The position numbers were made by a program, and so were the translations under genes. Positions 2,343-54,796 of a stretch of 64,000 nt of DNA are shown piece after piece. The stretch covers positions 391,706 to 455,705 of the forward strand of contig CASDSU010000028.1 of the NCBI GenBank assembly GCA_949283575.1, read 5' to 3'. Origin of the DNA: an uncultured Eubacteriales bacterium. GTDB taxonomy: Bacteria > Bacillota > Clostridia > TANB77 > UBA1234. Each line of letters starts with the position of its first letter. The first letter of the stretch is position 1. The notes beneath the pieces are model-generated. The model saw only the letters and a program-made list of their open reading frames with translations. It searched no databases and had not been told where the DNA came from.

Positions 2343-2367
2343 GGACAAAGGGACGGAACTTTTGGCC
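2343..2367 (-). repeat. GGACAA hairpin repeat copy, asymmetric core inverted
   Basis: GGACAAAGGGACGGAACTTTTGGCC. Its reverse complement, GGCCAAAAGTTCCGTCCCTTTGTCC, matches the family consensus. Starts 12 nt after the stop at 2330. Confidence 0.7.
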
Positions 2368-2376
2368 AAAAAAAGA

Positions 2377-2408
2377 GGCAACCAGCTAGAAAGTTGGTTG
2401 CCTTTTTT
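2377..2408. terminator. Bidirectional intrinsic terminator between convergent genes
   Basis: GGCAACCA (2377-2384), a 10-nt loop, then TGGTTGCC (2395-2402) followed by TTTTTTG. An A-run on the other side serves the minus strand. Confidence 0.75.
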
Positions 2409-2409
2409 G

Positions 2410-3120
2410 TTAATCATCGTAGTCTGTAGCTTCAGGTTCTTTATCTTTGGTCTGTCGCATTTTTTGATACTCTTGTTCGATTTGATAACCCTCGGGGACC
2501 ATGAGTTCAAAAATGCTACAAGTAGCAATTTCATCTTCCATAAGGCCGATGTAAGGAGAAATAAAAATGTAGAGCAGGGGTAACAAAATCTTAAGATAAG
2601 CAGGTAAACCAGTCATTGCTGTAAAAACAACAAGAAGACAGATAGGAATGAGCATGGTAATGACATACGAAAGAATATAAATGATTTTGTTATGGAAGAG
2701 TTTCGAGATTTTCATCGTCATCGAATTGGGGTTATATCCTAAGAATTCCGTATTTTGAAATTCACGAATAGTAATCCAGAGTCGTGTGACAATGAGCGGA
2801 ATAGCGAACAGAAGGAGGCTTGTCACAAAACTAGCTTTGCAACCCACGATAAACAAAACGACAATCGCGCCTGAAAAAGCGACAGATTGAATAATCTCGG
2901 CTTTCGATCCTTCAACGTACGATTTCCAAAATGCGCCAATGAAGACGTTCACGATGCTGAGAATCAGCAAAATGGTGAAGAAGAGAGCGTTAGAAACTTT
3001 GAATGCCCACAAGAAGGCAACCTGAACGAGAATGGTAGTGAAGTATGCAAAGTAGGAAATCAGGTCATCCGAGAGCAAAAGCTCTATACCACCGAAGTAG
3101 TTGTAAAGAAAATTTTTCAT
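2410..3120 (-). CDS. Multi-pass membrane protein, unknown function (GC-rich gene)
   Basis: ATG at 3120 has AAAGGGGA 7 nt upstream, whereas the track start at 3159 has no RBS. About 6 hydrophobic helices (e.g. ALFFTILLILSIVNVFIGAF, IIYILSYVITMLIPICLLVVF) and an acidic tail. Spot G+C is 42-47% against about 30% in the flanks. Confidence 0.7.
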   Translation of the reverse strand: MKNFLYNYFGGIELLLSDDLISYFAYFTTILVQVAFLWAFKVSNALFFTILLILSIVNVFIGAFWKSYVEGSKAEIIQSVAFSGAIVVLFIVGCKASFVTSLLLFAIPLIVTRLWITIREFQNTEFLGYNPNSMTMKISKLFHNKIIYILSYVITMLIPICLLVVFTAMTGLPAYLKILLPLLYIFISPYIGLMEDEIATCSIFELMVPEGYQIEQEYQKMRQTKDKEPEATDYDD

Positions 3121-3427
3121 GTTGATATCCCCTTTTATGATGATGTTGAAGTGGTTCACGTTGAGTCTTTCATGATTTTTAAATCACTTTCATAACAAAT
3201 CAAACTCCTTTCTTGATTAGAACAATAGAAAGTACTAATAAAATTTTTTTGCAACAGTAAGTGTATCATCTCATTACTTGTTATGTCAATTGTACGGTGT
3301 GCATATTTTTGAAATTAATATTAGCTATTCTTATATCTAGTAGTAAAACTAGTAATTTGAATTATGAAAATTCTGAACGTATAATTTAATTGTAATAAAA
3401 ATAAGAACGAAAGGTTTGGTGATTTGT

Positions 3428-4565
3428 ATGAGTAGAACTGTTGGTACAATCTCAAGAGGGATACGCACGCCAATTATTCGAAACGGAGATGATCTGGTTA
3501 AAATAGTTGCAGATTCTGTTATCGAAGCCTCACAAAACGATAAGTTCGAAATTAAAGATCGAGATATTATTGGTGTAACAGAAGCCGTACTTGCAAGAGC
3601 GCAAAATAATTATGTAACAGTAGATGATATAGCAGAAGATGTTAAAAATAAATTTGGAGAAGAAACAGTTGGTTTAATATTTACAATAACCAGTAGAAAT
3701 CGTTTTGCGATATGTTTAAGAGGAATAGCAAAAGGATTGAAAAAAATAATATTGATGCTAAATTATCCATCGGACGAGGTGGGAAATCATCTTATTACAC
3801 TAGATATGTTAGATGAAAAAGGAGTAAACCCATATTCGGATGTACTTACACTTAAAAAATTCCGAGAGTTGTTTGGATATAACGAACATCAATTTACAGG
3901 TATTGGTTATGTACAATATTATGAGGAATTAATTAAGGAATATGGAGCCGATGTAGAAATTATATTTGCTAACAATCCAAGAACAATTCTTAATTACACA
4001 AAAAATGTAATTGCATGTGACATACATACAAGATAAATACATCTATCAAAGGGAGTGGATACAACGAGCAGTACGGACTTTTGGGTTCAAATAAATCAAC
4101 AGAAGATAAAGTTAAATTATTTCCGCGAGATGCAGAAGAGTTTTCTATAAAACTACAGAATGAAATGTTTGAAAGAGTTGGTAAAAAAGTAGAAGTTATG
4201 ATATATGGGGATGGTGCATTCAAAGATCCGATAGGAAAGATATGGGAACTTGCAGATCCTGTTGTATCACCAGGATACACTAAAGGATTAGAAGGCGTAC
4301 CAAACGAAGTAAAATTAAAATATTTAGCAGATAACAATTTTGCTCACCTAAGTGGAGAGGAATTAAAACAAGCAATTAGAGAACATATAAAGAACATATA
4401 AAGAACAAACCAGACAATCTTATTGGTTCAATGGAAGCACAAGGAACAACCCCACGAAGACTTATAGATTTAATTGGTTCATTATGTGATTTGACATCAG
4501 GAAGTGGCGACAAAGGAACACCGGTTGTTTATATACAAGGTTATTTTGATAGTTATTCAAATTAA
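3428..4565 (+). pseudogene. F420-0:gamma-glutamyl ligase-like (CofE/PF01996-like) gene, disrupted twice
   Basis: Three consecutive ORF pieces read as one protein (..GIRTPIIRNGDDLVKIV..DRDIIGVTEAVLARAQ.. / ..GSGYNEQYGLLGSNKS.. / ..GTTPRRLIDLIGSLCDLTSGSGDKGTPVVYIQGYF). The frame changes by 1 nt between 4021 and 4036 (TAA at 4034). A perfect tandem duplication GAACATATAAA x2 (4381-4402) creates TAA at 4399. The start codon is uncertain (TTG 3416, GTG 3419 or ATG 3428). Confidence 0.6.
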
Positions 4566-4588
4566 AAACCTCTTATTATTCAAATTAT

Positions 4589-4625
4589 GGCTAAACTTAT
4601 CGCGGAATAGGTTTAGTCATTTTTC
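4589..4625 (+). terminator. Candidate terminator after the CofE-like gene
   Basis: GGCTAAAC-N14-GTTTAGTC (one G-U pair) followed by ATTTTTC. Confidence 0.45.
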
Positions 4626-53792: not shown

Positions 53793-54028
53793 TGATTCTT
53801 CCTCCTTAATGATGTTTGTCAATTCGTAGGGACACAAGGAAAACACCGTGACTAGATTGACCACTGCTAGATTTAGCTAACGTAGTAAATTATACCATGA
53901 TATGGTAATTGAATCAACATAATGCGGAGCTAGAGCGAGAAAACAAGAGTAAAATTGAATAAGGTTTGAGAGAAATATGAAAAAAATCGAACTTATTAAG
54001 ACAAAATTGAGTAAATATGATTCAAAAA

Positions 54029-54046
54029 GGACAAACTGCTCTGTCC
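54029..54046. repeat. Short GGACAA hairpin repeat copy
   Basis: AAAAAGGACAAACTGCTCTGTCCTAAAA. Confidence 0.5.
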
Positions 54047-54086
54047 TAAAAGTCAATATGAGCGGTGTATAAAAATGAAATGGTAT

Positions 54087-54153
54087 AAAGAAAGTAGACA
54101 CAAATGAAGTGAACCCCAAAATGTTCACTTCACAAAGTCTACTTTCTTTTTTT
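54087..54153 (+). terminator. Compound 13+10-bp hairpin with a T-run and no annotated upstream gene
   Basis: AAAGAAAGTAGAC/GTCTACTTTCTTT (54087-54099 / 54137-54149) encloses TGAAGTGAAC/GTTCACTTCA (54105-54114 / 54123-54132), then TTTT. Confidence 0.6.
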
Positions 54154-54518
54154 AGCTTAATTCTAGGGATTGGTGGAAGGGAGAATTTCGTTCTTTTAAC
54201 GGACGTTACTTGGTGGATGATGATGAGGAATGGCTACGGAGTGAAGAGAGAAAGAGGTGAAATAAGGAAGTGTTACAGATTTGTTACAAGAGTTGTAACT
54301 GGGATGTAATAAAAACGTAAATGAAACTTAATAAAAGGCGATTTTTGTCACAAATTAGAAATGTGAAAATGTGCTTCCGTAAAGGGAAAAAGGATGAACT
54401 AAACCTGCAAACCCTACTTATATCAATAATACGCGCGTATGCGCGTGTTTACACGCACTTGTATTTGTGCAAAAATAGGTTGTAGTTGAAAACAAATGAG
54501 TAAGGAGGTGTGCAATCA

Positions 54519-54683
54519 ATGCGAGAAGTTAATATGACAACTTTGAGAAAAGACCTGAATGTTGGTCAAATTTTTGATGAGGTTTTGCAGAAATACAGAA
54601 GAGAATACAGTAGCAGTGGATTGATTGCATGCACGAGAAATGTAAATAAAAAATTCAAAACTAGTAGAGAGGGGGCGATGTAA
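54519..54683 (+). CDS. Possible 54-aa ORF upstream of the second giant gene
   Basis: AAGGAGG 10 nt before ATG 54519. MREVNMTTLRKDLNVGQIFDEVLQKYRREYSS... is loosely Phd/YefM-like at the N-terminus. Below the track size cutoff. Confidence 0.3.
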   Translation: MREVNMTTLRKDLNVGQIFDEVLQKYRREYSSSGLIACTRNVNKKFKTSREGAM

Positions 54684-54769
54684 TTGAGTGGTATTGTGAA
54701 AAAGTTAATACAAAAGATGTTTAGATGTGTGAATAATTATTACATCGTGCCGGAGAAAAATGAGAAAAT

Positions 54770-54796
54770 GGACAAAAGACTTTGTCTCATTTGTCC
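54770..54796. repeat. GGACAA hairpin repeat copy with a duplicated right arm
   Basis: GGACAAAAGACTTTGTCTCATTTGTCC, 46 nt upstream of ATG 54843. Confidence 0.7.

Follow-up and report, generated by a model that had tools for sequence, protein, structure and literature searches.

A dispersed loop-tagged hairpin repeat in an uncultured Clostridia lineage, a likely partner of RAYT/TIRYT-type Y1 proteins

INTRODUCTION

Inverted repeats with the motif GGGGWSAS in common flank the genes known as TIRYTs at similar distances, and the repeat families are moderately abundant in some species (Di Nocera et al. 2013, PMC3733652). Quentin et al. (2018, PMC6006769) equate these genes with subclass 2.1 of the TnpAY1 proteins and with group 1 of the RAYTs (transposases associated with repetitive extragenic palindromes, REPs) defined by Bertels, and they found no REP-like sequence for this subclass. 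Bertels et al. (2017, PMC5581495) reported group 1 in Clostridia and found that its flanking 16-mers occur only about 12 times. A further class, the CGTC-tagged REPs, was described with no dedicated transposase found (PMC3733652). Here we analyze a dispersed 25-nt hairpin repeat in a 64,000-nt stretch of DNA from an uncultured Eubacteriales bacterium (contig CASDSU010000028.1, positions 391,706 to 455,705; the whole stretch is referred to as the window), and we compare it with these systems.

We consider it likely, from comparisons at the sequence level, that these hairpins are REP-like non-autonomous palindromic repeats, the dispersed partners of a RAYT/TIRYT-type HUH-Y1 single-stranded DNA nuclease/transposase. 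A preliminary description of the window had named REPs or bacterial interspersed mosaic elements (BIMEs), pairs of uptake sequences, and RNA or protein-binding hairpins as options. The first of these was retained, while uptake-sequence pairs and a strand-specific RNA motif were not.

RESULTS

The hairpin repeat in the window

The window has a G+C content of about 33% and a strongly G-rich plus strand, and a 22-kb part of it is identical to part of a 118-kb ENA metagenome contig. The arm pattern GGACAA-N6..20-TTGTCC matched the window exactly six times, compared with 0.01 expected from shuffles, and a 25-mer consensus with up to three mismatches matched five times, compared with none expected, so that the proposed enrichment over shuffled sequence was borne out. 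The dispersed 25-base hairpin repeat is real and not a product of chance. A covariance model, R1, was built from 129 non-identical family members of many genomes and was run on the window without filters, a test that is partly circular because 9 of the 129 training sequences come from the window. It returned 10 solid copies at E < 0.001, at 14114-14150, 16280-16316, 20768-20804, 38354-38390, 43695-43732, and 51019-51055 on the plus strand and at 2337-2373, 33565-33601, 36069-36105, and 50198-50234 on the minus strand. It also returned a related copy with different arms, absent from the earlier list, at 20831-20867 (22.4 bits). Thus, the preliminary claim of at least 14 copies was right about the repeat but too generous in its count: 10 copies are solid and one more is related, while two of those listed are marginal and three are unsupported. 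The density is about one copy per 6 kb, and all window copies are singletons, apart from a small mosaic cluster at 20805-20935. No Rfam family matched at the hairpins, either at the gathering score or at E <= 10, and a tRNA scan of the window found none. The solid copies are as follows (ORF, open reading frame; folds are RNA folds).

2343-2367, minus strand: hairpin copy with intact core (GGGACGG on the plus strand); R1 31.1 bits, E 6e-5; 12 nt past the stop of ORF 39-2330, between convergent genes.
14120-14144, plus strand: hairpin copy with core ACGTCCC; R1 40.6 bits; 5 nt after the mreD stop and ahead of pbp2 (Pfam MreD, PBP); fold -12.3 kcal/mol on the transcribed strand, with AAAAG next and no U-tract.
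16286-16310, plus strand: hairpin copy with core CCGTCAC; R1 36.1 bits; 8 nt past the pbp2 stop and 20 nt ahead of the minC start (Pfam); fold -5.8 kcal/mol, no U-tract.
20774-20798, plus strand: hairpin copy with intact core that opens the mosaic cluster; R1 41.4 bits; A6 run upstream, T7 run downstream.
33571-33595, minus strand: hairpin copy 11 nt past the stop of the gene for a 4111-aa protein; R1 41.4 bits; stem now near perfect, T9 next; fold -27.1 kcal/mol with a U9 tail.
36074-36100, minus strand: hairpin copy with intact core; R1 27 bits; supported by the orthologous-site alignment.
38360-38384, plus strand: hairpin copy with decayed core ACGTCAC; R1 36.4 bits; 8 nt past the ORF 38028-38351 stop and ahead of the next gene's ribosome-binding site.
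43701-43726, plus strand: hairpin copy with intact core; R1 37.4 bits; between the minus-strand genes for EPSP synthase and a metallo-beta-lactamase-fold protein.
50204-50228, minus strand: hairpin copy with decayed core GGAATGG; R1 30.7 bits; 8 nt past the metG stop; stem improved, T6 run next; fold -20.1 kcal/mol.
51025-51049, plus strand: consensus copy with no mismatches; R1 40.4 bits; 4 nt past the tatD stop and 17 nt ahead of the trpS start; no U-tract.

Below, copies are referred to by their first position. Measured from the ORF ends, the eight gaps between stop codons and listed copies are 12, 5, 8, 11, 8, 10, 8, and 4 nt, in agreement with the 4-12 nt given before. The gene names assigned earlier were recovered as well (MreC, MreD, PBP2, and MinC via Pfam; metG, tatD, and trpS via Pfam families). 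Likewise, some copies do lie inside apparent operons, with 14120, 16286, 38360, and 51025 standing between operon genes, and the ORF list contains the false TTG starts that the repeat creates at 14118 and 38358.

A variable, covarying stem around a constant loop

In the window, the stem GGACA(A)/(T)TGTCC encloses the loop AAAGCCCCGTCCCTT, while in the general family a covarying stem of variable sequence surrounds the constant loop (A)GAAC-CGTCCC-C. The loop is 9-13 nt long and contains the conserved CGTCCC, and the hairpin is flanked by A/T runs, TG, or CG. The reverse complement of the core, GGGGACGG, is a near match to the TIRYT motif GGGGWSAS, agreeing at 7 of 8 positions.

Across the 129-sequence alignment, a 13-pair helix had 70.5% of its cells paired, compared with 60.1% after shuffling; none of 500 shuffles reached the observed value, and the pairing clearly exceeded that of all slid controls. 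Members of the alignment had been preselected for at least six perfect pairs somewhere, which biases the inner pairs and not the flanking ones. Pair 10-28 alternates between C-G (99 sequences) and A-U (21), and the first flanking pair is GC in 57, UA in 29, AU in 14, and CG in 5 sequences. The earlier remark that the bases flanking the arms covary therefore holds, given the pairing above shuffles and the switching of this first flanking pair.

The architecture also bears on the idea that the hairpins could be inverted pairs of DNA uptake sequences. A precedent that speaks for it comes from Neisseria and Haemophilus, whose uptake sequences are often paired in this way within terminators. Here, however, the arms are just 6 nt, and GGACAA is not enriched outside the hairpins, with 23 occurrences on the plus strand, 12 of them at listed hairpin sites. 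Moreover, the conserved part is the unpaired loop, the sequence is shared by unrelated phyla, and there are nearly no copies in coding DNA. We regard uptake pairs as an extremely improbable explanation.

The repeat occurs in two phyla

One genome per prokaryotic species was scanned with the pattern GGACAAAAGNNCCGTCCCNTTGTC, in which 21 bases are specified; for a collection of this size, we estimate well under one chance match. The pattern was found in at least 112 genome stretches of Bacillota and Bacteroidota, with at least 39 tiles from RGIG4047, a metagenome-assembled genome (MAG) of Clostridia with the accession JAFTQC01. Carriers in Bacillota include Clostridia, Oscillospiraceae, Lachnospiraceae, Syntrophomonadaceae, Virgibacillus flavescens (complete genome), Butyrivibrio sp. 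VCD2006, and Clostridium sp. C8-1-8; those in Bacteroidota include Prevotellaceae, Muribaculaceae, and Sodaliphilus. The G+C content of the motif loci spans 27% to 62%. Most taxa have AA at the two free positions of the pattern; the window and RGIG4047 have CC instead, and Syntrophomonadaceae have GA. Many loci hold two inverted copies a few tens of bases apart. The lineage-specific variant GGACAAAAGCCCCGTCCCYTTGTCC was absent from JGI metagenome contigs. The general pattern was absent from IMG/VR viral contigs, which gives no sign of a phage vehicle. Searches of the literature for the repeat sequence, as 15-mers and 10-11-mers, returned nothing relevant, and the repeat was not found described in a search of recent RAYT/TIRYT literature.

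Other arrangements were also seen among these loci. Head-to-tail tandem arrays of the hairpin with a period of about 38-40 nt occur in Butyrivibrio sp. VCD2006 (L048:3150-3350), where the entire 40-nt unit including its spacer is repeated, and at L077:7483-7560. Further types combine a CGTCCC-like core with other arms, namely TTGGAAA..ATTTCCAA, CGTCCAT..GACGGACGTCCCCC..ATGGACG, GGGGCGTCCCTC, and ..GGGGACGTCCCC.., and form BIME-like mosaics in L097, L099, and L031 (RGIG4047) and at 20868-20935 of the window.

A Y1 transposase-like protein is specific to the motif loci

ORFs were called in all motif loci and clustered all-against-all by BLASTP. One motif-specific ORF family was found, at 10 loci in both phyla, and it matched Pfam Y1_Tnp. 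The other recurrent clusters (ABC ATPases, dehydrogenases, GH53, NamZ) were set aside as ordinary neighbors shared by related MAGs. The Y1 proteins are 251-270 aa long (about 255), with an HUH/Y1 domain and a C-terminal winged helix-turn-helix (Pfam HTH_24, HTH_11). They carry the motifs NH[VA]H, F[QR]DR, and YIH[QNY]NP, and residues H61, H63, Y121, N125, and P126 are invariant in a 20-member alignment. The proteins are only about 27-36% identical. The best NCBIfam model was REP_Tyr_transpos (NF047646) at 57-76 bits; as this is under the equivalog cut-off of 80, the proteins are distant relatives of that family. When the alignment profile was compared with the PDB, the top match and sole solved relative was E. 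coli TnpAREP (4ER8, E 2e-5), and the IS200-like chains 2F4F and 2EC2 appeared at E 0.4-0.6, among non-significant matches.

These results bear on whether the hairpins could be the ends or miniature derivatives (palindrome-associated or miniature inverted-repeat transposable elements, PATEs or MITEs) of classical IS200/IS605 elements, moved by an insertion sequence (IS)-type TnpA with or without TnpB. The Pfam Y1_Tnp match and the hairpin form of the repeats are as that origin would have it. Nevertheless, the tyrosine motif is Y...NP, as in the RAYT class, and not Y...Q, and the IS200 NCBIfam model (NF033573) scored no more than 23 bits, compared with the 57-76 bits of the REP transposase model. 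The genes examined in the protein-first survey below are single, stand amid housekeeping genes, and have no adjacent tnpB (six genes), and their flanking hairpins are inverted and not one-strand as in IS608. Such an origin is accordingly one to which we give very little credence.

In two RAYT-like genes, the repeat was inserted in frame. At L043:2295-3104, it encodes ..GGGTKEPSLCN.. between the N-terminus and the HUH motif, and at L107:920-1756, it encodes a C-terminal ..KEPSLCPT.. tail. Quentin et al. (PMC6006769) reported in-gene REP insertions for subclass 2.4 only.

Inverted hairpins bracket the Y1 gene

At the 10 loci reached from the DNA motif, copies lay close to the Y1 gene in eight, on both sides in most; in the remaining two, the gene is at the edge of the locus. 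Typically, a minus-strand copy lies upstream, and a plus-strand copy lies 6-11 nt past the stop. Starting from the protein, a search with the L077 sequence gave 571 relatives, six of which were looked up. All six were bracketed by the inverted minus/plus pair, in surroundings of housekeeping genes (ROK/T2SS, ABC2/recG, spoIIIA-region, uvrA/murD), and tnpB adjoined none of them.

Metagenome contigs were then scanned with the protein alignment, which yielded 80 loci. A CGTCCC hairpin was present on at least one side in 46 of the 80 and on both sides in 28, with many of the remaining loci short of flanking DNA. Three more loci have the core but were missed by the stem criterion, and five have an identical architecture with CTGTCCCC in place of the CGTCCC core, so that the count rises to about 54 of 80. 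Counted from the start codon, the minus-strand hairpin falls between -50 and -135 and the plus-strand one between +750 and +890, and there are almost no CGTCCC hairpins elsewhere in these loci. The stems differ completely from locus to locus (TGGGTCA, TGCCAAAA, GGAGACAG, GAAACGCGG, AAGGAAAAG), while those on both sides of one locus match, and the loop consensus stays constant (..CA | A-N-A-G-A-A-C-CGTCCC-C-N | TG..). The preliminary description had advised looking for a RAYT/IS200-like gene in the genome; a RAYT-type Y1 gene bracketed by inverted hairpins is indeed found, in other genomes of two phyla.

Repeat units turn over within the lineage

Over window positions 33.7-54.5 kb, RGIG4047 is syntenic and about 80-90% identical. 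Both genomes have copies 36074 and 50204. At the orthologous site of 36074, RGIG4047 has about 113 nt of extra adjoining repeats; extra units are also present beside the 50204 site, where the core of its ortholog is intact. The 43701 site holds a different palindrome with GGGGACGTCCCC, and the 42361 site a large palindromic doublet. Copy 51025 is missing in RGIG4047, in which a 1.5-kb insertion with one ORF lies between tatD and trpS (L031:4575-6125 vs 51008-51058). Between the two genomes, repeat units have been gained, lost, or replaced at these orthologous sites. In a closer strain, L002, which is 99.7% identical over 13 kb, the sole difference in the repeats is a one-base change in a C-run of copy 43701.

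Lineage counts were made on the window plus the 39 RGIG4047 tiles (368 kb), the tiles having been chosen via the motif. Only 5 of 116 copies lie within ORFs, although 87% of the sequence is coding. The copies per kb were 5.7 in convergent, 2.5 in co-directional, and 0.9 in divergent spacers, with the sister-genome densities overestimated because the loci were chosen by motif. Half of the co-directional copies begin within 15 nt of a stop. The placement in intergenic DNA, with enrichment at gene 3' ends, is thus as had been supposed. Doublets in RGIG4047 are minus/plus in 17 cases and plus/minus in none; 10 of the 17 spacers measure 44-48 nt, and certain spacers are found at more than one locus. 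A minus/plus doublet looks like the bracketed gene locus without its gene, which makes it REPIN-like.

The loop is not oriented with respect to transcription (19 forward, 27 reverse) or to the G-rich strand (41:39), which upholds the earlier statement that core orientation is independent of transcription. This counts against an RNA-level hairpin of 3' untranslated regions, in which a conserved loop would be read by an RNA-binding protein or RNase in processing or stability. Such a role would suit the position of copies in transcribed 3' regions and between operon genes, as well as the conservation of the loop. However, the asymmetric loop occurs equally in both orientations (19:27), so that half of the transcripts would carry its complement; there is no Rfam match, and the association with a gene for a DNA enzyme explains the loop conservation. 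An RNA element is, in our assessment, highly unlikely.

Some copies are predicted to act as terminators

Three copies are terminator-like on the plus strand by RNA folding, namely 33571 (-27 kcal/mol, U9), 50204 (-20 kcal/mol, U6), and 20774 (-13 kcal/mol, U7), and 2343 and 43701 have terminator features for minus-strand genes. By contrast, the transcribed strand lacks a U-tract at 14120, 16286, 38360, and 51025, in keeping with the earlier observation that only some copies carry a T-tract. An A-run before the hairpin and a T-run after it are present in about half of the lineage copies. From its predicted fold, copy 33571 is probably a working terminator. Copies 33571 and 50204, with a blurred or lost core, better stems, and U-tracts, look like two cases of repeats co-opted as terminators, whereas 14120, 16286, and 51025 are more likely neutral passengers or stabilizers of 3' ends.

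Whether the whole family could consist of ordinary Rho-independent terminators, similar through common descent or convergence and with no mobile-element biology, has to be weighed against this background. The start of eight copies 4-12 nt past stops, the A-run/T-run flanks in about half of the lineage copies, and the folds of -13 to -27 kcal/mol with U-tracts at 33571, 50204, and 20774 all fit. Against them stand the loop, conserved across two phyla while the stems vary, and the bracketing of a Y1 transposase-like gene. In addition, 14120, 16286, and 51025 lack a U-tract and fold weakly on the transcribed strand, the loop, at 9-11 nt, exceeds the usual terminator length and a simple terminator scan misses the sites, and doublets are of the minus/plus kind only, with shared spacers. 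We find this explanation very unlikely. The earlier judgment that these are not generic terminators is supported by the conservation of the loop across phyla and by an orientation that ignores transcription.

Conventional terminator-like hairpins with U-tracts were also seen outside the family, at 4587-4620, 10343-10378, and 17382-17414. As these hairpins are unrelated to the repeat, the genome also uses ordinary terminators.

Decayed and doubtful copies and other features of the window

The remaining repeat-related sites of the window are as follows.

20805-20935, plus strand: decayed cluster of related-type repeats, seen in the sequence, with R1 22.4 bits for 20831-20867; its units are a type-2 AGAAAAAGGAACCGTTCCAATTTCA (20836-20862), ..CCGTTTGACGGATGCCCC.., and ..GGGGCGTTTCG...
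42361-42384, plus strand: possible relic GATAAAAGCTCAATCCCTTTGTCT; no R1 match at E <= 10; 10 nt past the stop of ORF 41937-42350.
54029-54046, no strand assigned: short hairpin GGACAAACTGCTCTGTCC, a doubtful member; R1 15 bits, E 0.46.
54770-54796, plus strand: marginal copy with GGACAAAAG..TTTGTCC arms and the CGTCCC core missing; R1 19.4 bits, E 0.04.

Intact versions of the units in the 20805-20935 cluster occur in RGIG4047. The site at 42361-42384 may be a relic of the repeat, as RGIG4047 has a related palindromic doublet at the orthologous site. The listed sites 20584-20606 and 52071-52086 gave no R1 match and no hairpin (minimum free energy about -2 kcal/mol).

Apart from the repeats, two giant genes are present on the plus strand, one at 21224-33559 (4111 aa) and one from about 54843 to beyond 64000 (more than 3500 aa), which runs off the window end. 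The product of the latter, called in L001, contains DUF285, LRR_5, and Flg_new repeats. SLH-domain proteins are encoded near the giant genes, at about 38403-39698. Neither a T-box nor any other Rfam leader was found upstream of metG and trpS (47000-48183 and 50229-51067), even at E <= 10; leaderless aminoacyl-tRNA synthetase genes are somewhat unusual in Bacillota.

DISCUSSION

The closest described system is the TIRtron/TIRYT, and on motif signatures, our Y1 proteins and their hairpins appear to correspond to it, that is, to TnpAY1 subclass 2.1 and RAYT group 1. The proteins share a length of about 240-270 aa, NHVH, an 'FQ' replacing the W motif, Y-I-H-x-N-P, and a C-terminal HTH; the subclass 2.1 assignment was made by these signatures and not by a reference tree, and the Y motif also fits subclass 2.6. 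The repeats share inverted placement at fixed distances from the gene and a G-rich core; at five loci of the same Y1 family, GGGGACAG at the same hairpin position fits GGGGWSAS exactly. Dispersed families, dimers, and clusters of the repeat can arise in both systems. The systems differ in that Di Nocera et al. described terminal inverted repeats, whereas here each repeat is a hairpin with the core in its loop, and in the high copy density and the recurrence of the same 25-27-mer across Bacillota and Bacteroidota.

The canonical REP/REPIN-RAYT systems (E. coli TnpAREP, 4ER8; Pseudomonas REPINs) are similar in their short extragenic palindromes enriched downstream of genes, their closely spaced inverted doublets, a Y1 gene present once per locus examined with its own flanking repeats, a stem specific to the gene copy, and the effect of some copies on transcript 3' ends, which is predicted here. 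Unlike them, the repeat has its invariant bases in a loop of 9-13 nt and no GT[AG]G foot, the protein contains an additional HTH domain, and the hosts are gut or anaerobic Bacillota and Bacteroidota and not Proteobacteria. The CGTC-tagged REPs, which were reported from Bacteroidetes and other phyla, share the CGTC tetranucleotide and are short palindromes, mostly in head-to-head dimers (PMC3733652). They were rejected as the same element, for their CGTC is an unpaired end tag, their stem measures 8-9 bp and their loop 4-5 nt, and they carry a CCA tail, whereas here CGTCCC lies in the loop and there is no CCA tail. In the supplementary REP table of Quentin et al., CGTCCC was found only within GTAG-type repeats. 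We conclude that the element belongs to the REP/RAYT kind and is closest to TIRtrons, with two features undescribed in the literature compared: the core in the loop and an arm type shared across phyla.

The following mechanism is proposed. The enzyme would recognize the loop plus the stem on single-stranded DNA, cut it, and rejoin it, and this cutting and rejoining would spread hairpins to new intergenic sites, either singly or as minus/plus doublets spaced by 44-48 nt. Copies would persist mainly right after stop codons because insertions are tolerated there, and a hairpin placed between an A-run and a T-run may terminate in either direction. In this lineage, the expected partner gene would code for a protein of about 255 aa and have two GGACAAAAGCCCCGTCCC hairpins, a minus-strand one 50-135 nt upstream and a plus-strand one just past the stop.

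Several points weigh against a REP-like partnership with a Y1 enzyme. A tblastn search found no Y1 gene in the window, none was found in the 39 RGIG4047 tiles, and none of the three NCBI-sourced homologues checked is from RGIG4047. As neither the window nor the 39 sister tiles holds the gene, the window copies may be fossils; they may also be served by a gene elsewhere in the genome. The GT[AG]G at the 5' hairpin foot, the canonical REP hallmark, is absent, and roughly 4 of the 10 solid window copies have substitutions in the core. There was no insertion polymorphism between the 99.7%-identical strains over 13 kb, and the inflation of the sister-genome densities by motif-based choice belongs here too. 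To our knowledge, no cleavage or binding is known for any member of this protein branch.

A bolder generalization, tentative and rather doubtful, is that the loop-tagged hairpin, with any stem around AGAAC-CGTCCC-C, is the general and so far missed DNA partner of the largest RAYT class (subclass 2.1/group 1/TIRYT), whose enzyme would read, and perhaps nick, the loop and not a guide tetranucleotide at the foot. Among HUH enzymes, Rep proteins and relaxases act at the loop, while IS608 TnpA and E. coli TnpAREP read a foot tetranucleotide. The window-type arms GGGAC/GTCCC repeat the loop core GTCCC. One idea is that arms duplicating the loop core come under the same constraint, which would explain the recurrence of the 25-27-mer in two phyla despite 27-36% protein identity.

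For annotation, the repeat accounts for intergenic hairpins that create false TTG/ATG starts and can be mistaken for plain terminators. The finding extends high-copy REP-type repeats to uncultured gut Clostridia and Bacteroidales. With cultured carriers available in Virgibacillus flavescens DJP025-4, Butyrivibrio sp. VCD2006, and Clostridium sp. C8-1-8, binding, cleavage, and effects on transcript 3' ends are testable; the gene for the V. flavescens protein lies at about 1,405,616-1,406,377 of NZ_CP192260.1. For the family as a whole, the repeat supplies a candidate DNA partner for a branch of domesticated Y1 transposases that is large and poorly understood.

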